Below are positions 1-41,178 of a stretch of 64,000 nt of DNA, in pieces. The translations under genes and the position numbers were made by a program. This DNA is from Amoebophrya sp. A120 (taxonomy: Eukaryota; Protista; Dinoflagellata): the NCBI GenBank assembly GCA_905178155.1, contig CAJINV010000008.1, positions 3,105,303 to 3,169,302 of the forward strand, read 5' to 3'. The notes below the pieces were generated by a model. The model made no database searches, was not told the origin of the DNA, and saw only the letters and a list, made by a program, of their open reading frames with translations. How positions within the stretch are numbered: the stretch's first letter is position 1; each line of letters begins with the position of its first letter.

Positions 1-2
1 AA

Positions 3-3000
3 ACGAGTTGCAGTCTTGTCGGTGCCGGCCACCGCGTCAAGCAGCGTCGGAGCGGATCTTCGGGATTGTACTATCACTACAACGCGCACCACCAGGAGGC
101 TCGGGAGCAACGCGCACAGGAGGAAATAATCAGGCGACTTGCGCCAGTGATCGAGAAGATTTTATTCAAGAGGTGCCGCCGAGCGGAAGCAGAGGGAGAG
201 GCTGTCGGTTTATTCTACTCGCTATGTGATCATAGAGGGGCTGATTGTAACGAAAAATATCAGGATGATGTTCTTGAACAGGAACAAGCGCACAACACCA
301 ATTTACATAAGCAGCATGTCCTTCGCTATTTTCGAGACACCATCACGGAGAAGCAACTGGATTCCTTTCTCCCGTCTTTGGAGTACCTCTACAAGCGAAA
401 ACAGATCAGTGAAAGCGATTACGAGTTTCTTGCCGCGCAGGGTCGGGTCGCCCTCAAGCGGCTGGTGTGGTTTCGCCATGAGCTTTTCAAGTTCGAAAAG
501 AAGCGGCGGAAAGAGATGGAGTGCCAGTTTGTGTCGGAGTGGCGGGAGCATTCGGACCGGTATTTGGAATTGCGAAATTTCCGCATGGACCTCATGGACG
601 AAGAGCAAGAAGCTGAAGAGGACCAGGACAAAAGTGACGACACGGGATCGGACGAGGGTGATGCAGGAGGTATAACAGATACAAGAACCCGCAAAACCTC
701 GTCCAAAGCAACCGACCACGAAAAGAAAACCGCGGCCGTAACGGCGAATCCAGATTCCGACGCAGCTGGTGCTCCTGTTGAGAGGACCATGATCAAGACG
801 GTCGTGGAGCCGAAAAAGAAAGACGACGCAAACGACAGCGACAGAACTTCTCGCATTTCATCTAAAGATGTTGATAAGTGCGATGGTGAACAAGGTGTCC
901 AAGAGCCCGCCAAAGAAGATGAAGAAACAGAAAGCAAGGATTCTCCACCTGCGGTTGATGCTACGGAGTTAGCTATGCGAATGCTGCACTCCGAGGAGGA
1001 GCAGCAAAAGCAAGACAGCACGAGGAAGCTCCGCGCTTTTCTGCGTCGCTTGGAGCACAAATGCCGTTTGAACGAGGAACGCAAGTACAATGCACCGGGA
1101 CGAGTTGCGAGACGCGACGAAGCTCTTCTTGCAGAATTCGATTTGTTCCGGAAAATTGAACACGGCAGAAAGCGCGTTTCCTCTTCGGCACCAGTAGCCA
1201 CTTTGGACGCGGCTGAAGTTGTGGCTGATCTGCCAAGGTCAACATCGACGTTTAGCGAACATAATACCTCCGACGTCCACTCGCGAGGTTTCACTTCCTG
1301 CGACAGGATGTTTTTCTGCAACGACGAGGAGCACGAACTGTTCCTTCGGTTTCTCACGAAGAAGCACCAAGGCAGGTCGGGTTCCGGCGTCATTCGTGAC
1401 CGTATTTTGGCAGCCGCAAGCCTAGGTCTTGCGGGAGACGAAAGCGAGCGGGAATATTGGGCGCTGATGCAGAAAGACCTGCGGGTTCTTCAACCAGAAC
1501 CATGTGGAGACAAGGGTGACGACCACTCCAGCGCGACTGGTGGAAAAAGAAAAAAGGAAAGCGAGCAAGCAGTTCTTGGTGACACCAGCGCGGTAAAGAC
1601 CCGACTGGACGCGTTTTTCGCTGCGGAAAGAAAGGAACAGGAAAGAAAGCGTGTCGTGCAGCGACGAGCTACAGAGGATGAAAGCGAATTGGATCACAAT
1701 CACCCGCCGGACGGAGGGCTGGGGGAGCAGCGGAGGGCGTGCTCGCTGATCATGAAAGAGGACACTAGTAACAAGGATGCAGACCAGAATTATGTGAGTG
1801 ACGCGCTTTCTGGCGGCGCGAAAGGAAACGAGCACACTGCGTCGGCGATGCAAGATCGCGTGGCTGCGTTGTACTCCTCTGCGCGGGGTGCAGGAGCAAC
1901 AGAAAGTCCCCGATCAAGAATCGGTGGAAGTAGGGGGGCAGTTACTTCTTCTACATTGAACGCTGCCAGCACGACAGTACCATCGCCACCACATCATCAT
2001 TTCCCCAACAGCGGAAGTTGCTCGAGCAGGGGACGACAGGGTGCAGCTCCAACTTTCGAAACCTCTACGTCGCGCAGTGCCCTTATGGAAGCGTCAGGAT
2101 CGAAATCAACAAAATTGAAATAATTTGTGATGCATAAAACCGATACCAGATGGAGCCTCAGTTTCCAATTGGCGCATGACAAATTTTGGGAACACCAAAA
2201 TCCAGTCTGTCATGCAGTTTGGGCAAAGAGGACCGCGCCTGTCATGCTACTCTGGTAGTACATGTTTAGGGCTCAACAGCAGGCTGGCAATCGGTCTCAT
2301 TTGCCTCCTCTCCAACACAGGCCTTATGTGCCCTACATTTTATGCATTGCAAATTTTTCGATTTTGTCGATTTCGATCCTGACACTTCCATAGCCCTTGG
2401 CCGCGAAGTAGTGCTGGACCCGAGCACGGGCGAATGGCGGCTTATAACCCGCTCAGGTGTTACAATCTCAAACGTTACAATAGAATTTGGAAATCTGTGA
2501 TGCAAGAATGCATGATCTAACCAATTCTCATAGGACTGCGCATGACAGGTTCCGGAGCATCAAACCCCACTACAATCTGGCGAAATTTGTATTGCAGAAA
2601 GTGGAACGCTCTGCGAGTCTGTCATGCTCATCATGCAAGACAAATCTCAGACTCTATTGTAATGTTTGAGATTGTAACGCTTGAGCAAGTCATACGGCTG
2701 AAGCCCTATTTCGATGAAACGCTCTGCAAGTGGATCTACTCTAGGTATGTGACTCTTTCTTTTGCACGGTTCACCCCGTGTAAAACTAGTACCAGTCGTG
2801 CTGGTAAGGGACGACCACGCGATCAGGAGCCGCTCACGAAGACCATGTACCTATGCAAGATGAAAAAAAGATTGCTGACCTGTTGCATGCGATGCAAGGC
2901 AGTGCTACTTGTACTTGTCATGCGGAATTATATGTTTATAAAGTGTGCGCCATATATCATAATTAGGTGACTTAGTTTCAATTTGTTCATTTCACGTATT

Positions 3001-6000
3001 GTCTGCGCATAACAACTTACTTTTTTTGCTGTCAGTGTCATGCTCATCCTCATGCCAGACAGATTTGAAATGCCGTTCTTCCAAAAAATTACGTCTACCT
3101 ACAGTCTTTTTTACTTGGATAGTGCCAGGAAGGATACTACTGCAGCAAGGAGAATAGACGCTTCCAGCTCACAAAGGAACAGGAGCCCGCTGCCCATGCC
3201 ACTCCCAGTACTTCGACTTGCGATGCATTTGCTCCTCCAGGAGCTAGTGCTTTCGTTTTTGGTAAACAAGTTGTGAAGAACGAGCGTGACATGGTGGTGG
3301 AGATGAATGTTGCCCGTGGTGGTCGTGATGAAGGAGTAGAACCCCATGATCTAGACCCCGTCCAGCAGGAAGAGTTTGTTGTCACGAGACAGGGACGGTG
3401 GGTAGCAGAGGCCCCTGACGCCACCGGCTGTCGTGGGCAACGTCGTAAGAAGCCAAGGTTTGAACATGGATACTTTGACGCCGTTGGGAACTGGGTGGTG
3501 GTTATCCTGTGTAATAACGTCCCTTTGCATGTGCATCCCAGAGTTTTACATAAGTAGATTTGTACTTGTTACAGGAACACTTGTAGAAATGGGCATCTTG
3601 TTCTGTCAGTCGTGTTGTCACGAAGAAGATAGAGATGACATGGCCTTGTGATGCGGCAGTCCTGCTTGCTAAAAGCCTGCTCTACAATTCAGAGATGAAA
3701 GTCTTGACGTCATCGACGCAACATAAAAAGCCGAAGCTCGTTGCTTTGTGTAGCAAAATCCCCAAAAATGTCTTGAGGACGATTTTACGGAGGATAGTGG
3801 TGGAATGGCACCGCCGCGAGAGCTGCTGGCTCGAGCGCGTCCAGATGCCCACAAAACATACAAGCTGCGCGACCTTGCTCAACAAAACGATGGCGGTGAG
3901 CACCGCCGAGCGGAGGCTTGCGCAGCAAGACCCGGACGAACTCGAACTGGCCGAGGAGAGGAGAAAGGAACTCCGGCTGGACTTGCGGAGGCAGCAACTT
4001 CTGGCGGCTCGAAAACGGAGACAATCCGTTGGTCAACATCTTACCGGCGCAGGACCAGGGCATGATCATGATCAGGCTGTAACCGGTTCCGCCCTCGTCA
4101 AGAACAAGCCAAGACCTGATGTAGTTCTTGAAGAAAGGGCCACTGAGAAAACGTCGAAACAAGCTTGTGTTAAGCCCCACCGTGGCCCCCGCACCGTCCA
4201 TTTTCAAGTGCCGGCTTCTGACGACGATACCGATAGCACGGACAACGAATTTTCCCGGGACAAGAGAAAAAAAGACCGCGACCGCAGGCGGGAAGAGCTG
4301 GACGCGGACACGATTTGTACTCCTGAGGAGATGGGCTTCGGCTTCTGCACCGCAGCGGCGCAAAGGGCGCACGACGGCGATTATGGTCCGGTTGAGGAGG
4401 GAGGTGAAGCACGAACGACCGAGGACAACCACTGGGTTCGCCTGGTCACCAAACTGCTCGGCGGCCACGGCTGGACGCTGACGAAGCAAAACCCCGTGGC
4501 GGGCTTCGACATTTTGCAACGGTTGCCCGCGGAAGAGAAGCGTTGGAGTCGTGGCAAGAATGAGGAAGATGATGATCAACATCTTCGTGAAAGTAGAGCC
4601 GGAGCTACTCGTCCTGGATCGTTATGCATTGCAAATATGTCGGCATCTGGATCTGGAATAATGATGTGCTCTGTAGTACATGATCATCACACACGCCAAT
4701 AAATTCCTCTCGCGCGGGTAGTTGTACAAGAGCGATGCCCATTTTTCGCCGTGCTGAAACGGTTTTCGTGATCCGGATTCCAAAAGACCTGTGACGCTAT
4801 GCCCTGCATTTTTCCAAACCTCGCGGGGCAAAGGCTAAGGCATACGAAATCTGCATGAAGACAAGAAACTCCCGGACTCAACATCCAAGAGACCGCAGAT
4901 GACATATTTGCAGTGGATAGTCGTACCAAACCAGATTGCTGGAAGAGTTTCAGCGGAGGGAAAATTTCCAGCGAGCTTTTGAGGACGCTGCTGCCACCAA
5001 GTGGGTGACCATTGCGCGCACGCACTACAGCTACCAGGCCAAGACCTGGATCACTCGCCGCACGGCCTTCTACTGCGCAAAGCAGCAGCGCTACGTGGCC
5101 TTAGATGGCTACATCAACGAGTTCACGGGCACGTTTATGCAAGGCGGGGGCCTGCTCCCCCTGCGCCAAGCCTCCGTGAACGTGGAGCAGCCGTTTGCCG
5201 GCCTGCGGCTCTGCCACGAAAAAATGCTGGTGCACCAAAAGCAGTACCTGGACTTCGGCCACCCGGCGTGGCAGCCGCAGCCGGAACACAAAAAGCTCGC
5301 GACGGTGCACCCGTTCTTGACGGCGCTGCAGAGAACGTGGCTGTCACAGACGCAGTGGAAATTGTGCAAATGGCGCGTGGGAAAGTGTTTCCTGCGGCAG
5401 GAGGAGCGAGAACTACTCCAATGGCTCTACTTCTTACCTGATCAGGACCATGCGACCCACCACATCGACGCGGAAAAGTCGAATCCACGGCCGGACTTTT
5501 CTTATACGACAGCCCCGAACAAGAACGACAACGACCAGCACAACGTCGAGATGAAATCTTCAGTCCCGACGCAGAACAGTTGTACCACATCGACCTCCTC
5601 CTGCGCAAGCAACTACCTCCGCCAGCCGAAGAGTCAGCACATTTACAACTTGTTGCGCGACAACGGGGTGCGCACCCGGAGAGATGCAATGCGGGTGCTG
5701 GTTCAGAAATTGAACGAGCGGATCGCCAAAGCGCATACCAAGGCGCGCGAGGTGTTCGTGCAGAGTTTGGGCGAGCAGTTGCTGGACGACGTGTGTGTGA
5801 CGCAGATTTTGTACGCCGAGCTCCTGGAGTTGGTCAGGACGCGCGAACAGGAGCAGCGATCGGCGCGCAACCGCTTCAAGAAGGAACTGGAGAAGCAGAT
5901 CCCCAAGCTGGCCCGCGAAATGAAGCAGCTACTGGTGGTGCAGGAGCTGTACGCCCGGAAGCTGCGGTTCCTGGAACCCTACAACTTTGCCAAGAGCCTG

Positions 6001-9000
6001 TTTTCGCAGCAGAAAAAGCTACTTGTGCTCGAAGAAGTGAAGACCCGGCAAAAAAACCGGAAGCGCGCGCTGCGCTGCCGACGAAAAATCGAAGACTTCA
6101 GGCTCAAAAAGCTGGAAAGCGAAATCAGCGCGAAGTTTAAAAACTTTGCTCAGGATGACGTACTAAATCGGGGCGAAGAAGCTGTAGATGACGAAGTAGA
6201 AGATGTTGAAGATGATGATCCTGAAGACGGCAACCATTTATGTTCAAGTCCTCGCAGAAGTGAAATTGGACGAATTGCTGAGACCATCGTCGAACAAAAT
6301 GAGCAACTACATCACGAAGGGTCTTGTCCTGCCGAGCCAATGGAGAATCAGCTGCACGAAGGTCGTGGTTCTGCCGAGACACTGCAAAGTCACGGATCAC
6401 CACCGCGGCCGGAGTCAAAAATACTACACGGCGAAAAAAGCATTCCGAAACTGAAGGGAGGCCGCCGAACGCAGGAAGAGGGCGGCCGCGGGGACATTAA
6501 CCATCTCCATGACCACTGCAGGTCCGCCTCGAAATCGCGATCCCGAGGACCACAGGAGCACTCGGAACGACGAAGACGAACCACCAGTACGAAAAAAGAG
6601 AAAAGCGCTGCAGCTCCTCCTCCCGCTCCACCACGTCGACCAACCTGGAAGTTGACGAAGCAAGACCGGCTGCGCATCGAGAAAATTGAGTACGCAAGGC
6701 AATCTCTTGTCCCCCGGCACGAAAAGCTGAAACTCTTTCAGGACCGGCTGACCAGCTTCGACCTGCTATTCAGAGGAAAAATCCCCCCTCCCCATATTGA
6801 ACAGGTACTTATGTTTCCAGAAATTTGTGTTGCGGATTTGAGGTCACAAATCACATCTGTCTTGATGCAAGAAGACAAGGGCAGAAGCTTCCGCCCCATT
6901 ATGGAAGCGATTTGTCATGCTGTTGGGCCTAAAGGGGGGCCGTTTGCCATGCTGAACTACTAGACCCATGCGCCCCTATCTAGCCTGGGGATCTGGCCGC
7001 AGTGCCTCTCTGCAATACAAAGCTGATTTGTGGCCACAAATCAGCATCACAAATTTTCGTTTTGATATGGGGAGGGGGGATTTTTCATCTTGATACCTGC
7101 TCGACCTGTACACCTTTGAGAACCACATCGAGAAGTGGCTCGAGGACACGGCCAAAGTGAACGCTTTGACGCGCCGAGCAGAGAAACTGGCGGAGGGCAT
7201 GCGACAGCACCACCGGAGGAAGGTGGAGAAGGAGTATGATGAAAATGGTGAGTCCAGTTGTAGTGGTCGTTCTACAACAGGAGCCTCGGCTTTCGCTGCA
7301 AGAAACACTGCAGCGAACGACGAGGACCTCGATAATCGCAGCACCATTAGCAGGCTAAATGTTCTTGGCGTGAAAAATAACCACAACAGCATCCTCGAAA
7401 GTGATCAGAAGGCCCTGGAGATTTCCGTTTCTGCCCATGCGAGGCGGTTCGCGCTGCACCATCGGGCAAAAAAGCTGTGGCGAAAGCTCTTTGAGATCAG
7501 CACACCCACAAAAAAAAGCATGAGGTCCGAAAAATGTGGAAAGAAGGCTGACGGGGACCTGGAAATATTAACTGACGAAGATGCAGAACCGAGGAAAAGT
7601 AGCTTCTCCGCGGTCGGCACCGCACGGCAAGGGCTTGTCGAGAAGACGGACAGATCACACCGGCGTGATCGCGGCAGTTCCTGTGCCCCCCCTGCCGCGA
7701 GTCAAGGAGAATCCCTGTGTCGCTCGTGTATTCCTTTTTCGCAGGACTTCAAAGCCGTCGTGGAGCAGCTGGAGATCCTATCAACTGTAAAAATGTCTGG
7801 GTCTGGAAGATTGCAACTTGTCATGCTGTTTTTGGACTCCGACTCTAAAAAGATTTGTATTGCATGACCAGCAAGAGGGGCACAGTTTGTGCTACACGAA
7901 CAGGGCACTTCTCATGCGGAAGGTGCATCAGGAAGCCCTCTAAAAGTCTGCGATGCTAGGTCCTGCATTACAGGAATCATGAGTCATGAGAAATATGCGT
8001 GACAAATCTTGCATTCTTCCAGACCCAGACATTTTTGCAATCCATAGATCCTGTACACCGACGAAAAGGAGTATCGCACGAAAAAACTGTTTCACTGTGA
8101 ACTTGTGATGCATAGAATGGAGCACACAACTATTTGTCTTGCTACACATGCAAGGCATTGGATTTTCAAGCGTGTTTTCCCTTGGTAAACGCGCATGACA
8201 GGTTTTTAGTCTCAAGTGTAGCAAACTTGTGATGCAGATCTTGCAAAATCATCACAGTGAAACAGTTTTTTCTTTGCATAAGGAGCAGTATGCGCTGACG
8301 CGGAAGCTTCAGCGTCAACTCCAGAATGCCAACGGGGAGCTTGGCCGCGTGGCCGCGACTTTGTCGGGCGGGATGAATGCCGCGCTGGAGCGTCTGACGG
8401 AGTTGAAGCGGCGGTTCCAGGACCGGATGGAACCGTACTATGAAAAACAGGCCAGGTCGATGAAATTGGAAAAAGCTTGTTTTTCCCGCGATAAAGAAGA
8501 GAAGAGCGGCGGAAAGCCGCGCTTCGTGTCGTCCTCGCGGGGGCTGCTCGGGGGGAAAAGAGGAAACTACACGGACGGCGGAGGAGGAGCACGAGCGCGA
8601 GCACGCGGCCATTGCGCTACTTTCTCCGACGACCGCAGGCGTGATTTTCCTCCGCGCGCTGCCCAGCAACAGGACGGCGAAGTAGACCACGAACTAAAAA
8701 CCTCTCACTGCTCTGCCGAACAGATACAGAAGACGCTTTTCGAGGCGCGCGTGCAGGCGCGTCGGCAAAGTCGCGTTGTCACGCTTCACAATTTCGCCGC
8801 GGAGGCCGCTGCGGTGCAGGATCTTGCCCAGAAAGAGAGGAACAGCGAACTGCGTCGCGAGGATTGGAAGAAGTTTCTCTCCTACGGCGCGGAAAGCACA
8901 GAAGACCGATGCCGCGACGAGTTCGAGGCGCACTTGCTGAAAACCATCCAGAGGCACGAGGCGCTGAATGTGCAAGCGCGGCTCGGCTTCGCGAGCGGCC

Positions 9001-12000
9001 CCCGTCCTGCTCGGAGTGCTGGCGCAACTGAAGTGACCGACGGAAGAGGAGGAGGAGGAGGAGGAGATGCAACGGGCCGTCTACCTTCCTGTTACGTGAC
9101 GACGCACACCTCGACGAAGGCGACGGCCGCGGCTTGTGCTGCGACCGAACAAGGCGCCGTTGCACAGGACCTCCTCCAGGAGGATCTTCAAGAGAACTCC
9201 GGTAATCGTACGAGCCGGGCTCGTACCTCGGCTGACGAGATGTACAACGTGCGACAAGAAATGAACCACAAGATGAATGGTCGGAAGTTCCACGAGCTGG
9301 GAGGGAGTGACAAGCTCCTCTTCCGCATTGAGGATCCTGATCTGCATCACAGGTTCTTCTTCACTGACAGCACAAGAACGACAACGACGGCTCTGGAGTA
9401 TTGAAAGGAAAAATCCCCCCTCCCCATATTGAAAACGCATTCGTCTGAAAATTTGTGATGCAGATTTGAGGTCACAAATCCTGTCTGTCTTGCAAGAATG
9501 CAAAGCCAGAGAGTCCGCCGCATTATGCCGGCGGTTTGTGATGCTGTTGGTCTTACAGAGCCGACATCTGTCACGCTAGTCCCCTAGGTCAAAACCTCTC
9601 GACCCAGGCTTGGCATATGCCTGCAGTCCTCTCCAGCAAGACAAATCTTATTTGTGTACGCAAATCCTGCATCAGAAACTTCGTTTCGATATGGGGAGGG
9701 GGGATTTTTCCTCTTAATATGGAGGAGAAGGCTCTCATCCACCAGATCCGGGAGTTCGACTTTGTGCCGATCAAGAACCTATCAAACGCAAAAGTGTATG
9801 GGTCTGGGAGGATGGAACTTGTAATGCTAGCTTTACATTCCTGGGTGGAAATCTGTATTGCATAACCGACAAAAGCCGCAGCCATTTTTGTCATGCAAAA
9901 ACGCAGGCTTCTCATGTCATGCGGGCTGCATATGAGAAAGTGCTCCGGAAAGTTGTCATGCTGGTCTGCATTCGGAAGTGTTTCCATCATACACATTTTA
10001 GTTTCACAAGTTTCCAGACCCAGACATTTTTGCACTTGATACAACCCCGCAAAACGTTTGGAAGTGTATCCCCTAGTAGAGAAGTATAAGTAGCACACCC
10101 GAAGTAGAACTAGCCAATTGTGTATGTTGCGGTTAATATTCTGGCAGAAAAGTGTTTGTCATGGTCTTGATGCGCAAGATGAAAGAAAAGCTGCCATGCA
10201 AAATGGACACTGTCATGCGATGCGATCTTCACGATGGGAAAGCAATCGGAGAGGTCGCAAAAAAAAGATTTATGAACAGACGAAGTGGTCCTCCGTGTTA
10301 TTGCTACATAAAGTAGACACTGCATCTACTCACAATTTTTTTCATATAGGGCACTTCATTGGGTGTGCTTTTCTCTAGGAAGAAATGTTTGCGAAACGAG
10401 AAAATCCGAATGGTGAAGACGTTGCGAAGCAGGAGTGTAGTACAACGACGAGCCCCCCGCCGAAGAGTTCAACGGAGACCTACTTCGAAAAGCACTTTCT
10501 GCGCGGGTACGACGAGCCCGCCGCCGGGACAGACTGGATTAGTGTGCAAAATTTTGTGAACCAGATGAATCGACGGTTCCCTGAAGGGGAGACCAAGGGG
10601 GAAGCGTGCCCAACCTTTTTCGCGCTGATGGAACAGCTCTACGTCGGCCGGTCGCGAAACTGGGTCTTCGAAATTGATGTGGAGAAGACAGATTTTGTGG
10701 AGCCGCAGGCACGCGAAGTCGAACAAAGCGAGCCATCTCGTGGCTCGTCGTCCACCGGATGTTTCGCTGGTGGTGGTGGTGCACGAGCAGCTCCAGGAGT
10801 AGGAGATGTAGAGGATGCAGCACATCAACTTCATCAAGCGCCAGACCCGGAGAGGACGAATGAAGAGGAAGATGTACTTCTAGCAAATATTCTTGAACAG
10901 CGAAGAACGCGTCGCCCAGGAGCAGGTCCTAGTATCACGGTCCACCTGACACCAGCCGAAGAAGTGCAGGAACACCAGATCCTCGCGCAGCACCTCCAGA
11001 CCGGTAGTTGTACTGGTCAGGTGAAAAATCTGCAACAAGAAGAAGTGGCCAAAAATACTCCTGCCGGGAACAAGAAGCTCTTGTTGCCCACAGCCTGCCG
11101 CGGGATGCAGTGGAACCGAAGAGCACACGTCCGCGCCGAATTGAGGAGCGCGGAGATGCTGAAACATGGTTCCATGATGCTGTCTATGCTTTGCAAAAGT
11201 ATCGTACTAGTATGAATTCTTGCAATACAAATTTCGATTTCCTCAGCATGAGAAATAAAATTTGTAGTTCGGATTTAACTTGAGAAAGACGCTTGTAATG
11301 CATGAATGGCATTACTACGAGTGCGATACTTTTGCACAGGATGCTGTCTAGTTGTACAGATGATCCGTCGAGGCTCGTCCTAGCAAGAAACGCGTGGCGA
11401 CATGATCACGAGTTTTCCCCAGAACCTTATTTTCTTTCATCAGAATCCAATAGCAGAAATATTATTCCAATGAAGCTGGATAGCACAACGACCCCGGCAC
11501 CGTCTACAGACGTAGGACGAGGCATGGAGGCATCGTTTCCCGCCGCCGTGTGGCCCCCGACGTCAAGTACCTTCTGCCTCTTTTCCTTCCTGCCGTCCCC
11601 TCAGCAAGCCTGTGCTGCGAAGAACTCACTACAGCAAGTGGTCTCCTTTGTCGACGCGCGCGGCCTTCTAGTCGAAGATCGTAGCAACGTGCGTGTCAAT
11701 ATGACAGTTCTGACTCCCTTTAGCCGCATCAGTCCACCGATTCCCGTCCTCACTGAACACGTGCGAAAGGGCAAGTTCTACACGAGAAAGGAGCCCATCC
11801 AGGACTTCATGCTTGACAAGGACGACCTGTGCGACGTGCACAACGAAGTTTTTCGCGCTGCTGGGAATAGAAGCGGGGCCAGCGCCCACTTTCACTTTTT
11901 CCACGAGACCCTCCCCGAAGCCAAAAAACAGTTGCTGTTTGTTCACCAAGATGAAGTGCATTCCGGCCGCTGCAAGAACTTTTCGGACAGGTGGAGCCAC

Positions 12001-30526: not shown

Positions 30527-31072
30527 ACGTGTTTCTTGTCAGTGCCTCATTTTCGCAAATTATTCCGAACTTGTCAATTTCAAATGTGACAATCCCATAC
30601 GATTTGATAATTTTATCGTAACTTTTTTGTTCAGCGAGCGTCAGAGGGATCTTTTCAGCCAAATTATCAACACATAAACGAGAATCGAAATCCCTGCCCT
30701 TGAGCACGATATTGTAAAAATGCATGTCTAGGCAGCGCGCCTGACGTCGCAGTTGCTGTGGGTTGATAATAATTGATTCCAACATGATGTATAAAAATGT
30801 TTTTATTGACTGACACGACAATGCCGATGCCCACGATTAGCTTTTGCAATGTAATATTTCAAGTATTGCAAATCGAGGGATCTACTTTTCAGTTTTGCTT
30901 TTGCAGCACGTAGAAACAACCCTTTAGAGGTACTTAGAATTTGTGTCTATCTTCTGGAAAAGAATGCGCCCTTAGTACCTTCATATCATGCAACCCATTT
31001 TTCTGATGGAAACTAAATCGCCAATACTAGAGTCAAGTCGCTTGCACTTCTTTCGTGCGGCGTATTTGTATA

Positions 31073-32599: not shown

Positions 32600-35500
32600 A
32601 TGATGCGACCCATTCGCGAAGGGGAGCTCACAAAAACGGTGTTATCAAAAGGAAAAATCACCCCTCCCCATGTCGAAAAGGTATGTTTCCGAAAATTTGT
32701 GTTGCTGATTTGAGGTCACAAATCACATTTGTCTTGCAAGAAGACAAGGGCAGAAGCTTGCTCCCCATTATGGGATTGATTTGTCATGTTGTTGGGCCTA
32801 AAGGGGAGCCGTTTGCCATGCTGAACAACTAGACCCCTACGCCCCTACCTAGCCTGCGCATCTGGCCGCAGTGCGCAGCGCCTCTCTGCAATACAAACCT
32901 GATCTGTGTACACAAGTCCAGCATCAGAAGTTCCGTTTTGATATGGGGAGGGGGGATTTGTCTCTTCGATAGGTGTACTCTCACATTCACGACCACCAGT
33001 ACGAGGACGCGATTCGAATTCTGAACGAGTACATACCAAATGCAAAAACGTCTGGGTCTGGAAGATTGCGAGATTTGTCATGCACGTTTTCCATGACCCA
33101 TGAGGTCTGTCATGAAGGACATAGCATGACAGATTCTGTGAGAGTTCTATCATACCTATCCTGCATGAGAAACTGCCTCTCGATTAGGTCAAAAGTGGAC
33201 AGCTTTTGGTAATCATGCAACACAGATTTTTACATGATTCAGATTTAGCATGGCAAGTTGCTTTCTTCCAGACCCAGACACTGTTTTACATTTGATAGTA
33301 CAACACAGGGCGCAACAGCTCCTCACGGGCGAACTTCAGCCTGCTGGCCTACTGCTATTACCACATTCAGGACTTTGCAAGCGCCGCCAGCTACTACCAG
33401 CAGCTCTCGCACCTTTGCCCCGAGAACGAAGAGTACAAGGCCTACTGGATCCAATGTCTGGTGAAGGCCGGGCACTACGAGGAAGCCAGCAACCAGCTGC
33501 TGTCGATGAATTCAGGCGCTGGGGGCGCCGTGAGCGCCACCAGCTCCGACCTGCAGGAGCGCTTACACCACCTGCAGGCGACCATACACTACGAACGGGA
33601 CGAGCTACAGCTCGCAAGGAACGTTCTCACGGCGCCGAACGCCACGGAGGACCCGGAACAGAAAACCATCTTCGAAGCCTCCCTGCTCTGGAAGGAGCAG
33701 CGGTACGCGGAGGCGCTGAAGCTGTACCAGGAGGCGCTGCAAACCCTGGGCTTCGTGGCCTGTGTGGTGTACAACATCGCACTCTGCTACTACAGCCTGA
33801 AGCAGTATGGTCCTATGCATCGCAAATATGTAGTCCGTTCTTGTCATGCGAGATTTCGATTTGAAGCAGAGCAGGATCTGTCTTGCATGAACACGAGTGG
33901 CCAGTTTTTTTGATGTCATGTTGGGAAAATCATTTTGTCACGCGTTTTAGTACACGAATGAAAATGAATGTGCAAGAACAGGCCTCGATAAATAAGTTCT
34001 CATGCTGAAAGCCGTACCGGCTACTCTCCAATGCGAGCATGATCAGCAACACAAGTTACTTATTCCCAGGCCGAGACATATTTGCATTTGATAGGGCCGG
34101 CCTTGAAGCAACTCGCGGACATCATCGAAAAGGGGGTGCGCGAGCACCCCGAGCTCGCGGTGGGTGGGTCTGACTACAGCGGAAACAACCTGCCCACCCG
34201 GTCCGTCGGGAACACGTCGGTCCTGCGCGAGTCCGCGTTGGTGGAGGCCTTCAATCTGAAGGCCGCCATCGAATACCAGATGGAGAACAAGGAAGCCGCG
34301 CGCGACGCGCTGCAGGACATGCCCCCGCGGGAGGAGTCCGAACTGGATCAGGTCACGCTACACAACCTCGCGCTGATCCAGAACATGGAAGACAAACCCT
34401 CCGAGGGCTTTCGCAAGCTGAACTTCCTGCTGCAGCAGCAGCCCAGTCCCCCGGAGACCTTTGTCAACCTGCTGCTGCTATTATGCATTTTTGCAAATAT
34501 GTCTGCGTCGGGAAGAGGCGAGCCGAGTCTGTGATGCTCTGAGGTCATCACGTCGGAAACGCAAAATATTTCATCTGCACTACTATTGCATGAGCATCCA
34601 GAGAAACCTACTTTTTGCCATTCGAAGACGGTACTTTTCATTTACGAGGAGAGGCATGAAGGAGCCTTATCGAAACTTGTACCGCAGGTGCAGCGTGCAT
34701 TCCAGCACTTCTGGGTCATGCTAGACCACCTGCACGACAAGCCTTGCAGTCCTGCTCCAGGCCCAGACACATTTGCACTTGATTGCTGTACTGCAAGTAT
34801 AACTACTTTGACCTGGCCGCCGACATCCTGGCCGAAAACGCGGACTTGACGTACAAATATCTGAATCCTCAGTATGGCTTGTTCAGATGTCACGAAAATC
34901 TCAACTGTTGCAAGAATAAAATCGGGACTTTGTCTAGCATGAACAGCATGAAAAATAACCTACAGAGGCTTGCGCTTTTCGCAGTACAACGAACTTCGAC
35001 GAACGATTCTAATGGGATTTGCTGCGAGTGCCTGAACTTGTCAGCATGCGCATTCGTGTGAGAGAAGGCCAGATCGTGTATGATCTTCTTCTTTTGCATA
35101 CGTAGAACTACGAAGTACGAAGAGGAAGAGCAGAAATCTGCATTTTATAAATAGAACAGTTGACGAGATTGTCCCACCTGCGCAGTCTATACACAGGAGT
35201 TTGAGTTTCTGGATGCCTTGATTTTGGCCCAGAGTGCCCCCGAAGACGCCTTCAAGCGGTTCGAGGAACTTTCGGGGAAGTATGGAGTTTTCACAGCGCG
35301 TTACATTCTCAGTTGTTACATGTTGAATTTGCGAACGAAGGCTTCGGCCCTCGTTCTCCCCGGCAACTCCCCGAGTTTGGCCGTTCACCACTAAAACGGG
35401 CGGCGTTTCGTCAAGCTCCGGTGGCGATCGGTTGAGACACTAATCGCCAGCTCCTACTTACAAGCAGGAACATAGATAGTGCGCTAAACAGTTACTCGCT

Positions 35501-38500
35501 CGCCTGAAGAAGCGAGCACCCGATTGAATTTGCGACGCAACTAACAAAAGCGCAAGTGGGTAGCTTCCCTACGCGTCTCCCATTTTTACAAATCCAACAT
35601 AGACTGCTACGCTGTTTCGCCCTTCGAGAATTCGCCACGCGAAGCAGCTTGGTCGTGTGGTGGCTCAGGCTAATGGTAATGGCGATTTTGCGTGGCAAAC
35701 GCAAATCACATAACAGCTGACGATGTAGCAACGCTTGCGAGTTCCATAGGAGGCACGTCGACGCGTTGCGCCGCGGAACGAAGAACATCCAGGACGCCCG
35801 ACGGCAACGGGACCAGCCGCTGGTCAAGAAACATCTCGCAGAGTTCGACGACAGCTATCCTGTGCGAAAACGTCCTCGCCCCATAGTTGTCATGCAGCAA
35901 ATCTGCATGCTCAAAATGTTTCTCATGCGGAACCCCATGAGAAAGAGAAGCATTTCCTACTCCTAGTCGACGCGTTTTGGAATTTGTAATGCTCCATTCA
36001 GCATAATAAGTAGTAGGCTAGATTTGTGATGCTGCTGAACGACCTAAACACCAGCACTACACTACGAGACCAAACTTGTCATTCGCAACAACCTAAGCCT
36101 ATTCATTGATTTGCCCAGCAGATTTTCCATCTTGACTATGGGGTGGGGATGTTTTCACTGAGGATAACAGCCTTTCAAAATACATCCCTGTTCTGATGGG
36201 CCAGGCCAAGATCTACTGGGAAAAGGAAAAATATGGCGAAGTAGAGAAACTCTTCCGCCAGAGCGCCGAGTACTGCTCTGATGACGAATCTTGGAAGCTG
36301 AACGTTTATCAAAATGAAAAGTGCCCCACCACCAGAAGACCTCCGCACAGCCTGCATTGCAAGCGCTCCAAATGACCGTAGAGCTTTCTCCCTCTCTTCT
36401 TGAGCGCAGTAAGTCGTACTCTGCAAAACGAAGATAAACAGTGCGGAATCCGCGCATCCATCAGTGCGGAGCTGGCGGCTGTACTTGAGTTGCACCATCA
36501 GAAGTGCGAAACTTTCGCGACTGGGCGTACCGTCTTCAAATCAAATCTCATTGCCCAGTGAATAAATGAGTGACTGCATGAAGAGATGAAACAAAAACGC
36601 AACGCGTTTCGTTATATAATCTAGACCGGTACTATGCAACTCAGACCTGAACCTGATTGACATCACTTACAGTGTGGTGCTATGGTGCCACAGAGACTCA
36701 CTCCCGCTACTCTGGCTTGCAAATTTGTCATGCTATAACACGCAAGAAAGCTGCGGTGGCAAGTGTTTACATTGCGAACTTTTGCAGTGCAAAAAGTTCC
36801 ACATTCTGGGAGGGGGGCGGCACCTTTATTCAAAATGATAAAGCTGCGCACGTGTTCTTCATGCAAGAGAAGTTCAAGGACAGCATACGGTACTACGAAC
36901 CTTTCGTACGCATATGCATGGCAAATCTGTCTCAATCCGGAACATGGCAGCTTGTAATGCTATTCAAGCTGGACCACGATACATAGCATCTGTGTTGTAT
37001 GAACGCCGAAAACTTGCCCACTTTCTTGTGTTCCATCTATTACAAAGTGGCGTCTTCTTGTTACGCGGGACAGTAGGCGTTGAAAAATTCTCGCAAAATG
37101 AATATCTGCAATGTGGTTTTGTTTGCATTCCAGAGCAACATCTGCGTCGTGCAAAAGATGCATGGCGTTGCTTCTGCATTTATCTCGCAATGGAATTGCA
37201 ATTATTGCAAACGGGGATGCATGACCTACAGGGTCACTTTTCCAGACCCGGACATATTTGCACTCGATAACGCAAGCACCAGGACAACCTGCTTTCTGTC
37301 ACCGCAATTATCCTGGCGAATCTGTGCGTCAGCTACGTTATGACCAGCGCAAACGAGGAGGCGGAGGAACTGATGCGCCTGGTCGAAAAAGAAGAGGAAC
37401 AAAAGGACCCGACGAAGCCGGTTTACCACCTGTGCATCATAAACCTGGTAATATCGTAAGAAAAAAGTGTCTCACTGTAACGAGTTCTGCAAGATCTATT
37501 GCGATCACTAGTCGTTCTCGTTGTTCTACATGACAAAGAAAATTTGCAACGCATGTTCAAAACACAGGAACTCGAATGAAAATGAATTCAGTATCTATGT
37601 ATACATGTGCAGCCGGTCCGGAGGACAAACACTCCTGCGTTCGCGTTCCATTTTATCATGAGTGACAAGTTTACAGCGAAACACTTTTTTCTTGCGATAG
37701 GTGATCGGCACACTGTACTGCGCCAAGGGCAATTTCGAGTTTGGTATCTCTCGGATCATCAAATCGCTGGACCCGCTGGAGCGAAAACTCGGCGTGGATA
37801 CTTGGTATAAGGGAATTGATTGTGGGGAACAAGAAAAATCTCAATCCCAGGAGCTCCTCCACTAAATTTACATGTACTTAGTTAGTATACGTAAAATAAA
37901 AAAGTGCACTCGAGGGTGCTGATTTGTCGCCACAAGTCAGGTTGATGCATTGACATTGTTGAAGAAAGTAAGGCAAAAATGCGCGAGCCACTTTCTTGTA
38001 GGCCGTCAATCCTTCTTCGGCTTCGGCTTGTGGCACAGCAGAGGATTTATAGAACACGCAATTCCAAACAGCTTGATACGTATCTACTTCTTTACAAACA
38101 GCGACCCTCGTTACCGTCCTTGTGCGATATCGAGACCAGGACGAAGCCAAAACGAAGCCAGGCGGGCAGCTTTGAAAAGCGCCCGCCTGTGTTGAAAGTT
38201 TTATTTCCGATGATGATCCTCCGAAAAGTTTCGAGGGCTCCCCGCCTTTGGGCCTCCCTCTGTTGCCTGCAAGGCGGGGCGCCCTTTGTGCCGCGTGTTC
38301 TGTGCCGCGCGTTCATTGGCCCCGGGCGCGTCCGTCGCGTTGTGCATGTGGAAGAGCCTGCGACGCGGCGTGCCGTCGGGCTCAATTTTTGAGCCGCATG
38401 GCAGTACAAACGCGAAAAAGCGCTGGCCGTCGCAAGGCTTTGAGTGTTTCGCATGCCAAGGGGGCGGCGCCGCCTTCGTTTTGCCTGGTGCCAGCTGGTT

Positions 38501-41178
38501 TCCCTGGTAAGCTCCAGCGCCTGGCGCAGTGTCTGCATGCGGGGAAGCGCCGGGCGCATGGGGGGGGCTCCCGGAAGGCGGGGCCCCGCGCGTCTCGTCC
38601 CGGGCATCGGGCGGGCTCGCGAGTGGGGCGGGTCGCGCGCCACCGGGAAAAACGAAGGGGCCCCCTCTTTTTGTAGGAAAAGCGCGCAGGCGCCGTGCCC
38701 CGGGCTGGAAGTGCACGCGCCTCCCGCTCGCATTGGCGCGCCCTGCGCGGGCCTGCTTCCGCGAGGGCCAAAATGTTGAAGGTATGCATGGCGACCGCGA
38801 GAGAGGCCATGTGCGTGGCTGCTCATTTTAGGGCCTTCTCCCCTGCCTGCTCGCTGGCCCGGGCCCCTCGATACCTTCGCCCCACCCGGGCGCCGCGGCG
38901 AAGCAACCCGGGCCCGGCCCTCCCATTGTTTGGTCTCTCTTTTGCAGAATAGGCAGTCGCCTGGCGGCAGGCACCCTCCCACCCGGCCGCCCGCAAGCCA
39001 GAGCCAGCGAGGCCTGGGAGAAAGAATTTATAGAACACGCAATTCCAAACAGCTTGATACGTATCTACTTCTATGCCCCTGAGCAGGCTTGCAGACCGGT
39101 TGACGGATGAAAACCAAATATTTCTTGCCAGAATGCAGATAAGAAATCTATCAATGGCCTGTGTCTAATTGCACAACTCCTCCTTCTGCTGACTGTTCCA
39201 CCTCGTCCCCCAGGTGGTGCGAGTATGATTTTCACCCACACCCCAGAAATTACTCTTGCATAGCATTGCGCGTGCTGATGTCCGTCTGGTCTCAGTGTGC
39301 GGAACAAGAGGAACCCCCCTTATTTTGATAGCCTTAGCCTGACCCTGATGCACTTCTTACGATTTGTATCTACACATAGTATGCCTAGAAAGGCGGAAGG
39401 GCAGCACAACTCGCATGATACACTCGCCGCGGTGCGGAATTTCAGATCTGCGTTGTTTAAAGCAAAAACCGGATCGCGTCTGTGCAGAAAATGCGCGACC
39501 GATGACATGAGATGATCAACAACCAACACGACTCTGTACTGATTTTAAATATTCTGCTCTGCTACGCGCTCATCACAAAACAGAAAAATACTGTGAACAG
39601 GCAACTGAATAAAGGAGTAGAAGGGGGGGCAGTTTGTGGTGTACTTTCAACCGAAAGAACACAAGGAAGTCCGGGTGTTTGATTTGTAAACTTTTTCTAC
39701 TTCAGGTACTACGCTAAGCGATGTTTCTATCCAAGAAAAAACTGTCACAGCATGCTTATGCACACTTTTGCTGGTTATTTTGGCTGTGATTCAGCAACAC
39801 AAGTGAATTCGGGCCTGGATCAAAACTACCTACGTAGACACAAAATCTGTAATGCCAATGCGCACATGATCATGATCTTGTTTCTCAAGGGAAAATAAAA
39901 ACGCATGAACCTGCGCTCCCCCTCCCCAGCTTCTCCCGCATGACAGAGCTTGTCCGTCTTGGTGGTCTTACGGCGTAAACTGTAACTTCTGTGGCACTTT
40001 TTTCACGGCATAGCTCCCTCGCGCTGGGAGAGACCTTGTCGAAGAACATGATTCTGCTGAAAGACGAGGCGTTTGAAGACATTTTGACCTTTTTCGACTC
40101 CGTCGCGAGCTATGCATTGTAAATATATATGTAGTCCGGGTGCAGGAGCCCCCGGTCGAGAAAGATGTAAACTTGTGATGCGGAAAATTCGAAAACACGC
40201 AAAAACAAAATCTTGTGGTGCACAGTGAGCTAAAGATGGACGATTTGGTTTCCAAAAGATAGCACTTCTTTTGCAGATGACTGAAAGTGGACATGGAGAA
40301 CTGAAGCCTCCGCAGAGTGAATTTGTCATGCGCTGTGGGCATTCGTTCCTTCAGAAGCTTTAAGCTTCCCACAAAGAAACTGCACTACTTACAAGTGTCT
40401 GCCTTCTTGCTCCGGAGGACCCAGACATTTTTGCAGTTGAGACGAGCGCGGGGAAACACATAAACGCCAGTCTGAACCATATTGAGAGGAAAAATCCCCC
40501 CTCCCCATATCGAAACGGTATGTTTCCGAAAATTTGTCTTGCTGATTTGAGACCCCAAATCAAGTCTGTCTTGCAAGAAGACAACGCCGCAGGCTCTGCC
40601 GCACTATGCAGGCGGTTTGTCATGCTGTTGGGCCTACAGCATAGACGTTTCTCATGCTAAGCGCCTAGGCCAAAAGCTCTCTACTCAGGCTTGGCAGGAG
40701 CCTGCAGTCCTCGCCAGCAAGACAGATCTGATTTGAGTACGCAAATCCAGCATCAGAAACTTCGTTTTGATATGGGGAGGGGGGATTTTTCCTTTTGATG
40801 AACCACCTTGACCGAGATGACAAGACCAAAACCGTTGCGATATCCTGAGTAAAAACGTACCCACACCAGAGTTGTAATGCAAATCTGCATGCTGAAAATG
40901 TTTCTCATGCGGAGCCCCATGGGAAGCATTCTCCAATCGTGTTTTGCAATTTGTCATGCTCCAATCAGCATGGTATGCTAGATCTGTGATGCTGCTGAGC
41001 TAGCTCAAACAGCACTACACTACGAATCCAAATTTGTCATGCAAAACAGCCAAAGCTTGTGGATTTGTCTAGCCGATTCCCCAACTTGACTATGGTGTGG
41101 GTACGTTTTTACTCAGGATATGCGAGGGAAGCCCGACTGCTAAAGAAATTTTTTCTGAAAATCAGTCAAGATTTTTGA
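32600..41178 (+). CDS. IFT70: Intraflagellar transport protein IFT70 / TTC30 / DYF-1 / fleer (TPR protein), 16 exons, 658 aa
   Basis: Exons 32600-32642, 32977-33033, 33303-33813, 34099-34481, 34790-34872, 35197-35280, 35754-35855, 36172-36306, 36846-36912, 37275-37451, 37705-37804, 39706-39727, 40018-40110, 40448-40479, 40806-40840, 41126-41178 total 1977 nt with consistent phases. Family motifs: IIEKGVREHPELAVG, LVEAFNLKAAIEY, DMPPREESELDQVTLHNLAL, PPETFVNLLLLYCKY, WKLNVAHVFFMQE, LANLCVSYVMTSANEEAEELMR, HLCIINLVIGTLYCAKGNFEFGISRIIKSL, DTWYYAKRCF. Confidence 0.97.
32643..32971. mobile_element. Introner family A, IFT70 intron 1
   Basis: DR GGTGT/GGTGT; also readable as GT-AG 32639-32972. Confidence 0.96.
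33034..33297. mobile_element. Introner family B, IFT70 intron 2
   Basis: DR GTACA/GTACA; taccaaatgcaaaaacgtctgggtctggaaga ... tcttccagacccagacactgttttacatttgata. Confidence 0.96.
33814..34093. mobile_element. Introner family B, IFT70 intron 3
   Basis: DR GGTCC/GGGCC; tatgcatcgcaaatatgt ... acatatttgcatttgata. Confidence 0.93.
34482..34784. mobile_element. Introner family B, IFT70 intron 4
   Basis: DR GCTAT/GCTGT; joins NLLLL/YCKY. Confidence 0.93.
34873..35191. mobile_element. Degenerate introner, IFT70 intron 5
   Basis: DR CTCAG/CACAG; tatggcttgttcagatg ... cacctgcgcagtctata; joins YLNPQ/EFEFLD. Confidence 0.85.
35281..35748. mobile_element. Introner (TATGGA-type, 468 bp), IFT70 intron 6
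   Basis: DR GGAAG/GGAGG; tatggagttttcacagcgcgttacat ... atgtagcaacgcttgcgagttccata. Confidence 0.9.
35856..36166. mobile_element. Introner family C, IFT70 intron 7
   Basis: DR ACAGC/ACAGC; joins EFDDS/LSKYIPVLM. Confidence 0.95.
36307..36840. mobile_element. Introner (534 bp), IFT70 intron 8
   Basis: DR ACGTT/AAGCT; tatcaaaatgaaaagtgcc ... ggcacctttattcaaaatgata; joins WKLNV/AHVFF. Confidence 0.9.
36913..37269. mobile_element. Introner family B, IFT70 intron 9
   Basis: DR ACGCA/ACGCA; joins EPFVR/KHQDNLL. Confidence 0.94.
37452..37699. mobile_element. Introner family D, IFT70 intron 10
   Basis: DR GGTAA/GGTGA; tatcgtaagaaaaaagtgtctcactgtaa ... ttacagcgaaacactttttttcttgcgata. Confidence 0.95.
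37805..39705 (+). other. Canonical GT-AG intron (1.9 kb), IFT70 intron 11
   Basis: TG/GTATAAG ... ctttttctacttcag/G TAC TAC GCT AAG CGA restores DTWYYAKRCF. Confidence 0.9.
38045..39072. repeat. 934-bp GC-rich insertion bounded by a perfect 47-bp direct repeat
   Basis: atttatagaacacgcaattccaaacagcttgatacgtatctacttct at 38045-38091 and 39026-39072. Confidence 0.9.
39728..40012. mobile_element. Introner family D, IFT70 intron 12
   Basis: DR GTTTC/GCTCC; tatccaagaaaaaactgtcacag ... ctgtggcactttttttcacggcata; joins KRCF/LALGE. Confidence 0.9.
40111..40442. mobile_element. Introner family B, IFT70 intron 13
   Basis: DR CGAGC/CGAGC; right end acccagacatttttgcagttgaga. Confidence 0.9.
40480..40800. 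mobile_element. Introner family A, IFT70 intron 14
   Basis: DR AACCA/AACCA; tattgagaggaaaaatcccccctccccatatc ... gatatggggaggggggatttttccttttgatg. Confidence 0.95.
40841..41120. mobile_element. Introner family C, IFT70 intron 15 (perfect 28-bp TIR)
   Basis: DR TGCGA/TGCGA; tatcctgagtaaaaacgtacccacacca and its exact reverse complement. Confidence 0.97.

Follow-up and report, generated by a model that had tools for sequence, protein, structure and literature searches.

We analyzed a 64,000-nucleotide stretch of DNA (the window) and identified 46 TAT…ATA elements with terminal inverted repeats and a 5-bp direct repeat, whose removal from the coding sequence fitted a single register at every informative junction. 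The strictly 5-bp repeat and this register are new here. The elements themselves are the published introner elements of the Amoebophrya sp. A120 genome, so the system is already known (PMC7789003). A120 is the host of the window, the proteins of IFT70 and of the ORF upstream of it being 100% identical to A120 gene models. The genome paper counted 29,850 repeated introns in 1,954 families in A120 (Farhat et al. 2021, PMC7789003). The first-pass annotation had recognized inverted-repeat introners of the Amoebophrya type removed without GT-AG, and such introns are indeed described for this same genome (PMC7789003).

The elements are far above chance in the window. TAT..ATA pairs with a near-exact 5-bp repeat and an inverted repeat of at least 10 numbered 27 in positions 1-42000 as compared to 0 and 0 in two shuffles, and a looser threshold gave 32 as compared to 11 and 2. 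About 48 densely packed elements had been claimed, and the final count bore this out: 32 lie in the upstream giant ORF and 14 in IFT70 (Table 1, where elements are named by their first position). Three doubtful candidates (10087, 31323 and 39119) were left out. The ends of six elements (12193, 12708, 18862, 22190, 23284 and 28863) were set or corrected by eye, and an exonisation reading of 23284 fell away once its end was re-placed. The length of the direct repeat was sharply 5, with an identity of 0.84 at this length and 0.17-0.34 at 2-4 and 6-9 (n=44); in another assembly, where 354 elements were found without using the repeat, the identity was 0.85. Among 45 window elements of 146-751 bp, the two copies were exact in 22, differed by one mismatch in 14 and by two to four in nine. 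Mismatches were uniform over the five positions (12, 12, 15, 12 and 14 in 233 oriented elements). When pairs were collected without a terminus rule, 340 out of 517 were exactly TAT..ATA, and TGT..ACA was not among the 30 commonest terminus classes listed. Five families had been proposed; loosened patterns assigned 30 of 45 elements to them, but 15 stayed unassigned and one terminal consensus, TAT-N5-G-N-AAAAA (217 oriented elements), is shared.

Once the 32 elements and one GT-AG intron are taken out, the giant ORF encodes 6,705 aa, the final 2,302 of which are the published model GSA120T00005988001. No Pfam match was found in the five exons tested. For 3-19650 the only published model obtained was a 115-aa fragment, and protein searches with two upstream exons gave no match at 673-2000 and 434-2000 aa. 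The reconstructed 658-aa IFT70 agreed with GSA120T00005987001 at every residue and was 81% identical to the A25 orthologue; the spliced product is a conserved protein. Keeping any one IFT70 element changed the ORF, which was shortened to 37-644 aa in 13 out of 14 cases and altered at the C-terminus in the remaining one. The 658 aa and 14 junctions of the earlier reconstruction were right, but a fifteenth, ordinary GT-AG intron also had to be removed. Upstream of IFT70, the junctions were placed by frame and by a published gene model, such models having been built from transcript alignments (PMC7789003), and all 10 upstream junctions with a unique frame fitted removal of the element plus 5 nt. 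No exon orthologue of the window was found among 118 loci of another assembly.

Table 1. Elements, genes and canonical introns of the window. Direct repeats are given as upstream/downstream copy; k is the number of upstream-copy bases kept. Elements not labelled IFT70 lie in the giant ORF.
Feature	Position	Strand	Direct repeat	Remarks
Giant low-complexity ORF	3..29891	+		Open at left window edge
Element	2084..2392		GCCCT/GCCCT	
Element	2443..2694		CGGCT/CGGCT	
Element	2852..3121		GTACC/GTGCC	
Element	3503..3796		GTGGT/GTGGT	
Element, family B	4623..4919		ATCGT/GTCGT	
Element, family A	6767..7095		CCTGC/CCTGC	
Element, family B	7779..8046		GATCC/GATCC	
Element, family D	8072..8280		AGGAG/AGGAG	
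Element, family A	9399..9719		TGGAG/TGGAG	
Element, family B	9780..10041		GAACC/CAACC	
Probable canonical GT-AG intron	10064..10378	+		Frame only; donor 10064 or 10076 both keep frame
Element, family E	11185..11343		CTGTC/CTGTC	Ends ATG
Decayed element	12193..12478		GGTCA/CTTTA	Ends by eye
Decayed element, family C	12708..13007		CTTGA/CCGCA	Ends ATG; ends by eye
Element, family A	13197..13519		AGGAC/AGGAC	
Element, family B	13583..13838		GATCG/GATTG	
Element, family C	14440..14783		TGCTT/TGCTT	Ends ATG
Element	16404..16711		AGTCA/AGGCA	Ends ATG
Element, family E-like	16940..17110		CGACA/CGTCG	
Near-perfect foldback element	17860..18610		GGAGC/GGAGC	751 bp
Decayed element	18862..19175		GCCCG/ATGCG	Ends by eye
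Element, family B	20335..20588		GAGCC/GAGCA	k=5 excluded by published model
Element, family E	21672..21854		ATTAC/GTTGC	Starts TAG; k=4 or 5
Element	22190..22506		GGTCA/GACAG	Only k=4 fits; GT-AG at k=1 unused; end by eye
Element, family D	23284..23533		CGCAA/TGCGA	k=4 or 5; end by eye
Element	23824..24130		GTGCC/GTGCC	
Element, family C reversed	24321..24637		CAGCA/CAGAA	k=4 or 5
Element, family A	25054..25382		GAAGA/GAAGA	
Element, family E	25455..25600		GGCGC/GGCGC	
Element, family C	26735..27013		TGGTT/TGGCT	Starts TAC
Element	28061..28320		CAAGT/CAGGT	
Element, family D	28437..28642		TGCCA/TGCCA	
Element	28863..29287		TGCAA/GGCGC	k=5 excluded; k=1 (GC-AG) possible too; published protein used to choose the end
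IFT70/TTC30 gene	32600..41178	+		658 aa; GSA120T00005987001; 14 elements and one GT-AG intron
IFT70 element 1, family A	32643..32971		GGTGT/GGTGT	
IFT70 element 2, family B	33034..33297		GTACA/GTACA	Starts TAC
IFT70 element 3	33814..34093		GGTCC/GGGCC	Contig: k>=3; GT-AG at k=1 unused
IFT70 element 4	34482..34784		GCTAT/GCTGT	Ends ATT; contig: k>=4
IFT70 element 5	34873..35191		CTCAG/CACAG	
IFT70 element 6	35281..35748		GGAAG/GGAGG	k=4 or 5; GT-AG at k=4 by coincidence
IFT70 element 7, family C	35856..36166		ACAGC/ACAGC	
IFT70 element 8	36307..36840		ACGTT/AAGCT	k>=4; weak predicted stem
IFT70 element 9, family B	36913..37269		ACGCA/ACGCA	
IFT70 element 10, family D	37452..37699		GGTAA/GGTGA	Contig: k>=4; GT-AG at k=1 unused
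Canonical GT-AG intron of IFT70	37805..39705	+		1,901 nt; required to reproduce GSA120T00005987001
IFT70 element 11, family D	39728..40012		GTTTC/GCTCC	k=4 or 5
IFT70 element 12	40111..40442		CGAGC/CGAGC	Ends AGA; also retained in lower-depth contig
IFT70 element 13, family A	40480..40800		AACCA/AACCA	Ends ATG
IFT70 element 14, family C	40841..41120		TGCGA/TGCGA	

The cut was located by mismatches between the two repeat copies, which made 12 of the 26 junctions examined informative; k=4 keeps four upstream bases and the last downstream base. This register fitted all 12, giving an intron of the form N+TAT…ATA+NNNN. Removal of the element with one direct repeat, as first proposed, was correct in length, but the data fit a cut that takes a single base from the upstream copy and four from the downstream one. 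Applied uniformly, k=4 reproduced both published proteins (2,302 and 658 aa) without any difference; k=5 left 3 and 0 differences and k<=3 left 4-7 and 3-4, respectively; retention of the whole upstream copy (k=5) was ruled out by GSA120T00005988001. The ends of the pieces of a spliced contig at four junctions required k of at least 3, 4, 4 and 4. IFT70 residues that depend on the upstream copy recurred in homologues (N465 and V466 in 86/86, F588 in 77/86 and K387 in 69/86). Removal was exact even where the repeat had decayed at up to four of its five bases (22190), and an available GT-AG at k=1 was left unused at 33814 and 37452, according to the contig, and at 22190, according to the gene model. 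We consider a single k=4 register probable. It is improbable that the borders of RNA-level removal around the hairpin differ between introns and that the k=4 fit is a coincidence of a small sample. The legend of Fig. 3 in PMC7789003 does call the sites variable, more than one k is compatible with 11 of the 12 informative junctions (only 22190 pins k=4 alone) and 28863 also fits GC-AG at k=1. However, k=4 was allowed throughout while k=5 was excluded at three of these junctions, k<=3 at nine and k<=2 at one more, and exact repeats would lead aligners to place borders arbitrarily, mimicking variability. At k=4 the 46 introns started with CT (15), AT (15), TT (10) or GT (6) and only five ended with AG, and they did not show the GT (or GC)…AG ends of a canonical U2 intron. 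A GT-AG placement was possible at 6 out of 45 junctions, a correction to the annotation, which spoke of many junctions without one.

The IFT70 elements were absent to the base from the spliced contig (1,945 nt), in which five exon ends fell at the predicted positions (126, 697, 1081, 1485 and 1729) with 0 mismatches; that its source run is RNA is a guess, and it may derive from data related to those behind the published gene models. Contigs from a probable DNA run spanned elements unbroken at 33226-35394, 35914-38074 and 39026-40505 (depth 25-30), and 0 exon-exon joins occurred among 15 listed joints of 343 from a probable DNA run, where contigs drop rare forms. Since the spliced contig lacks the elements and the probable-DNA contigs keep them, the elements most probably stay in the DNA and are removed at the RNA level. 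The annotation had allowed for either RNA splicing or DNA excision, and it is the former that these contigs support. Programmed DNA excision in some life stage, which would provide an element-free template, would suit the inverted repeats, the fixed 5-bp duplication and the strand-symmetric internal motif, all features of DNA transposons, as well as the guessed nature of the RNA run. We nevertheless regard it as very unlikely given the probable-DNA contigs, the retained form of IFT70 element 12 that the probable RNA run also contains (depth 6.6) and the 4+1 register, whose asymmetry follows the direction of transcription in each of the two genes. That the joins are reverse-transcriptase template switches between direct repeats at the hairpin foot is barely credible. 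A hairpin with a short direct repeat is the classic setting of this artefact, but any single retained IFT70 element alters the ORF while the spliced product is a conserved protein, and even at decayed repeats the joins are exact (36307, 39728 and 22190). From two raw RNA runs with the same species label, only 59 and 172 reads aligned; every one of them fell within element repeats, at 90-95% likeness, and the IFT70 exons received none.

The elements are likely non-autonomous DNA transposons. They have the inverted repeats, fixed-length target-site duplication and lack of coding capacity of MITEs and other TIR DNA transposons, and share with MITEs and Ginger-like transposons the 5-bp duplication and a repeated subterminal motif. 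Ginger termini are TGT…ACA, whereas the A120 elements end in TAT…ATA and do not qualify as Ginger-type. Copies up to 97% identical were found in another assembly, and 27 long pairwise matches linked window elements. A fixed element orientation was ruled out, since 7 of the 27 long same-family pairs were in opposite orientation; this leaves little room for internal strand-specific signals. The six family A copies in the window all had one orientation. The internal motif was strand-symmetric (295 vs 278), and the inward-pointing TGTNATGC motif shared by the elements may be a transposase site. No cognate transposase was found, as 34 ORFs of three long elements and 10 window ORFs gave no Pfam match at all; the 34 came from a list of 42, from which eight of locus L047 were left out as a false pair. 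Locus L061 (71-6031) is a family A element with a 5.6-kb insert, whose longest ORF has 171 aa. An A120 introner family with inverted repeats and LTR-retrotransposon-like ORFs is described, in the portion of PMC12130899 available, without Ginger termini and target-site duplications.

We lean towards a geometric ruler that would cut 1 nt upstream and 4 nt downstream of the hairpin, ignore GT and AG and act in either orientation on tens of thousands of introns, with a U1-less spliceosome or an undescribed nuclease-ligase as the catalyst. The case for a modified U1-independent spliceosome appears roughly balanced, and we give equal weight for and against the overall explanation, in which transposon-derived introners are cut from pre-mRNA by this machinery at fixed distances from a predicted hairpin. 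The U at +2 and the A at -7 under the k=4 register suggest such a hairpin-guided spliceosome. The two arms of the element would pair in the RNA, replacing U1 in bringing the intron ends together; the T of TAT would serve as U+2 in a relaxed 5' site, the branch nucleotide could be the first A of ATA (-7), and the 3' cut would be set by distance and not by AG. In A120, 83 of 89 spliceosomal proteins are retained along with U2/U4/U5/U6, and U1 was undetected (PMC7789003); Stentor offers a known case of a branch A set by position, at -6 (PMC9505925); a literature search for a fixed branch distance in Yarrowia gave no match. A terminal stem (P>=0.6 at pair 3) was predicted in 10 out of 14 IFT70 elements and no terminal stem in three (34482, 36307 and 40111). 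Terminal variants in 439 oriented elements leaned to sparing the 5' T (3 vs 14, p=0.013) and the 3' first A (15 vs 2, p=0.002), an asymmetry that was gone when only elements oriented by ORF length were counted (2, 2, 3 vs 3, 1, 2; 13 variants in 190 elements). Locus L001 held three true exceptions to this sparing. On the sense strand the arms were not enriched in G-U pairs (56 vs 46; 270 vs 286), and the branch-like word YTRAT occurred no more often at the 3' end than did its mirror (62 vs 75 of 217). In the other assembly G was not preferred at -1 (70/197, p=0.25), only 16 of 197 introns ended with AG, and G at +1 was weakly raised (77/197, p=0.03) but not so in the window (6/46). A stop-codon test was uninformative with counts of 1 vs 0.

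The main rival to the spliceosome is that a non-spliceosomal endonuclease and ligase read the stem in the same fixed register and release linear or circular RNA, which we regard as possible but doubtful. The stem would offer 1-nt 5' and 4-nt 3' overhangs, with release as proposed for euglenid nonconventional introns, whose geometry is similar and whose products include circles (PMC11282704). Consistent with this route are the disregard of available GT-AG sites and the lack of any AG or GT requirement, the occurrence of elements in both orientations, the lack of a branch consensus and the pairing of the candidate branch A in most predicted stems. Against it stand the strand-specific bias of terminal variants in the 439 oriented elements, which spares the 5' T and the first A of the 3' end, the near-complete A120 spliceosome with U1 undetected (PMC7789003) and the precedent of spliceosomal removal of transposon introns in Fritillaria (PMC11282704), and no such nuclease was identified.

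We compared the elements with known systems. The A120 introners of PMC7789003 come from the same organism and gene models, fall into many families, have RNA-supported non-GT-AG borders and carry inverted repeats that start with TAT, followed by about 7 variable bases and an A-run; the window elements showed this pattern (TAT, ~7 variable nt and at least three A). In the available part of that paper the repeats are 3-5 nt with variable or unknown borders, in contrast to the strictly 5-bp repeat and one register found here, and the TGTNATGC motif common to our elements was not found there. Euglenid nonconventional introns are likewise non-GT-AG, with ends joined by an inverted-repeat stem, duplication-like repeats and a MITE-like origin; however, they belong to an unrelated lineage, circular products are reported for them, and their pairing is CAG/CTG at +4..6/-8..-6 and not TAT/ATA at +2..4/-7..-5 (PMC11282704). 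Fritillaria borealis has transposon introns with inverted repeats, target-site duplications and non-canonical ends, removed by an adapted U2 spliceosome, but it keeps preferred AG-AC and AG-AT, whereas the A120 terminal dinucleotides are unfixed except for T at +2 (PMC11282704).

The available part of PMC7789003 leaves the borders of the published elements undefined. A fixed register names a candidate branch base (-7), specifies exactly where the excised RNA would begin and end, and predicts the cut genome-wide for every element with differing repeat copies. Insertions would be harmless because, whichever way the element lies, the 4+1 bases restore the original 5-bp target. If the ruler is true, any TAT…ATA insertion with a 5-bp duplication would be silent at the protein level, and annotation of the Amoebophrya lineage would gain a deterministic intron rule.

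We scanned the window for inverted repeats in general and then for TAT…ATA ends with a 5-bp direct repeat. The second scan gave 27 pairs with an inverted-repeat score of at least 10 in positions 1-42000 and none in either of two shuffles. A more permissive scan with inspection gave 46 elements (ends set or corrected by eye in six of the 46; three candidates dropped), which upholds the dense system described by the first-pass annotation while lowering its count of about 48 in 41 kb. The 45 elements counted were 146-751 bp long and covered 35% of 2084-41125. As that annotation had proposed, the direct repeat was 5 bp and no other length, with an identity of 0.84 over 44 window elements. The TGTNATGC motif or its reverse complement occurred 80 times in the window, always within 1-42000, with 74 copies inside 44 elements (13,252 bases) versus six in the 27,948 bases outside. 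The TAT…ATA scan of the window found no element with a convincing inverted repeat past 41.2 kb, and the last 23 kb had no elements, no motif copies and no Pfam match in the six ORFs tested (Table), which restricts the elements of the window to its genic portion.

Table. Individual features of the window and of the metagenome loci (prefix JACKZZ01)
Sequence	Positions	Feature	Remarks
Window	10137-10348	Decayed element-like sequence	Within probable GT-AG intron; ends unclear
Window	17860-18610	751-bp element	Near-perfect foldback over almost full length; usual TAT…ATA ends and 5-bp repeat; removable in frame despite foldback
Window	30098-30620	Decayed element-like sequence	3' of giant ORF stop; ends unclear
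Window	31089-31766	Intergenic MITE-like element	Ends differ (GGGAG…CTCCC); internal palindromic repeats
Window	38042-38091, 39023-39072	50-bp direct repeat (98%)	Around ~930 bp GC-rich insert in canonical IFT70 intron; insert looks like a separate insertion
Window	40111-40442	Sole element seen retained in probable RNA run	Variant end (AGA); weak predicted stem
Window	41200-64000	Element-free region	0 elements; 0 TGTNATGC motifs; 6 ORFs tested without Pfam match
Window	44006-44624	Array of CAGACACGCAG-type unit	Copies direct and inverted
Window	62336-62532	15-bp tandem array	
L005	632-1465	Family B element (834 bp)	Stretched by unrelated internal sequence; no match in Pfam search
L030	765-1461	Family B element (697 bp)	Stretched by unrelated internal sequence; no match in Pfam search
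L061	71-6031	Family A element in apparent protein-kinase exon	5.6-kb insert, like retro-insertion (poly-A run at end, ~25-bp flanking duplication); exact 5-bp outer repeat intact

A query with an IFT70 exon matched, with 100% identity, an Amoebophrya sp. A120 protein of 658 aa. Deletion of 14 elements, each with 5 nt, gave 658 aa identical to the published model GSA120T00005987001, as in the earlier reconstruction, provided that an ordinary GT-AG intron (37805-39705) was deleted too. By the same rule, the upstream ORF (3-29889) became a single frame of 6,705 aa once 32 elements and a probable GT-AG intron were taken out, and the rule held at all ten upstream junctions with unique frames on both sides. 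Five exons of this giant ORF were tested and had no Pfam match. Its annotation may be split, since the frame has at least 6,705 aa and the published model (GSA120T00005988001) is identical to the last 2,302 aa only. Among 11 sequencing runs, the fraction of IFT70 words present was 0.26-0.27 in four guessed to be RNA and 0.90-0.92 in two others. A 1,945-nt contig (depth 24.6) of X4, one run guessed to be RNA, split into IFT70 exon pieces with no mismatches, and five exon-end positions equalled the prediction exactly; four internal junctions were checked only via sums of those positions, and junctions past element 11 only by the extent of a second contig. Another X4 contig (depth 6.6) kept one element (Table), and reads of two raw RNA runs matched element repeats only. 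Contigs of the probable DNA run X1 passed through the elements unbroken at depth 25-30, with no exon-exon join among the 15 joints listed (of 15 + 328). The spliced X4 contig and the unbroken X1 contigs support removal at the RNA level, X4 being RNA by guess, which agrees with the 66,565 introns with RNA support that PMC7789003 reports for A120. Of the two routes first envisaged, removal from RNA is the supported one; excision from DNA, against which the X1 contigs speak, is highly improbable. That the joins are reverse-transcription artefacts, a possibility known in general, is barely credible.

We use k for the count of upstream-repeat bases that remain in the product; its value can be read wherever the two copies of the repeat disagree. 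Contig pieces ending at 33811, 34480, 36305 and 37450 gave k of at least 3, 4, 4 and 4, respectively, since ambiguous joints are placed leftmost, judging from aligner output at exact repeats. The published proteins, whose borders derive from transcript alignments (PMC7789003, section 25), inform nine of 26 junctions: k is 4 or 5 at six, at most 4 at 20335 and 28863 (the latter also fits GC-AG), and 4 alone at 22190, the only junction fixing this value by itself. With three more from the contig, k=4 was allowed at all 12 informative junctions. Uniform k=4 left no difference to both published proteins, k=5 left three and k≤3 at least seven in total. A comparison with 86 homologues pointed to the upstream copy as the coding one at repeat positions 2 and 4. 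Since k=4 is common to all informative junctions, with no protein differences, the intron is likely N+TAT…ATA+NNNN in a single register, with the reservation that spliced contig and gene models may come from shared source data; borders varying from intron to intron are improbable. Removal of the element plus one repeat copy, as first annotated, was correct in length, but at k=4 the cut takes one nucleotide of the upstream and four of the downstream copy. The claim that many junctions lack GT-AG also held: GT-AG could be drawn at six of 45, being unused at three, identical to k=4 at 35281 and uninformative at two.

At k=4, TAT starts with its T at +2 of the intron, and ATA starts with its first A at -7. 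In spliceosomal 5' sites, U+2 is the most constant base. The Stentor branch A is set by position without consensus, as the 10th of 15 nt (PMC9505925), and A120 has 83 of 89 spliceosomal proteins with U1 undetected (PMC7789003). From the U+2/A-7 placement and these observations we favor, at an even chance, a U1-independent spliceosome: the arms would fold its substrate, the T of TAT would serve as U+2, the first A of ATA would be a candidate positional branch A, and the 3' cut would be placed by distance. A nuclease-ligase like the one proposed for euglenids (PMC11282704) might remove the elements instead, which we consider less likely; for it and against the spliceosome count the AG ignored at the 3' end, the absent branch consensus and the pairing of the candidate branch A in the predicted stem. 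We rank the spliceosome first, then the nuclease-ligase, variable borders, DNA excision and artefact. RNA folding predicted a terminal stem in 10 of 14 IFT70 elements (z of -3.5 for element 37452 and -1.1 for 36307), and no G-U excess was found in the arms in the window or the metagenome set. With elements oriented by codon score, terminal variants spared two bases, the 5' T (0 vs 10 in 217 elements, 3 vs 14 in 439) and the first A of ATA (6 vs 0 and 15 vs 2, respectively), and these biases have opposite mutational directions. Orientation by ORF length turned one case against this pattern and confirmed three exceptions at locus L001, and the 13 variants so oriented showed no terminal bias; the sparing is suggestive only.

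Scanning metagenome contigs for the motif gave 119 stretches; every listed one belongs to a single assembly (118 loci, 620,961 bases). Copies there were at most 97% identical to window elements, and none of the 118 loci held an exon orthologue of the window. The 5-bp repeat recurred in 354 elements detected without using it (exact in 239), and pairs detected without the terminus rule had TAT..ATA in 340 of 517 (window included). Shuffling gave four false elements in 302,519 bases versus 472 real ones in 662,961 bases. Members of one family occur in either orientation, 7 of the 27 long pairwise matches being opposite. The TGTNATGC motif faces inward from both ends (forward 206 of 295 in the first half, reverse 178 of 278 in the second) and shows no preference for either strand (295 vs 278), a pattern that would fit transposase sites. 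The 5-bp duplication and PMC12130899 point to an integrase-like transposase as the putative mover; the search for an element encoding one, suggested in the first-pass annotation, found none by Pfam among 34 ORFs of three long elements and 10 window ORFs.

Inverted-repeat introners, said by that annotation to be reported from Amoebophrya, are indeed described in this same genome, including the TAT start and A-run (Farhat et al. 2021, PMC7789003), a paper that describes the borders as variable or unknown. Our literature search, with subscription journals mostly outside its coverage, found no paper devoted to register or catalyst; Figs 3 and S19-S23 of PMC7789003 may bear on the novelty of the register. 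We conclude that the system is real and already known, and that its likely fixed register is a new, directly testable detail.
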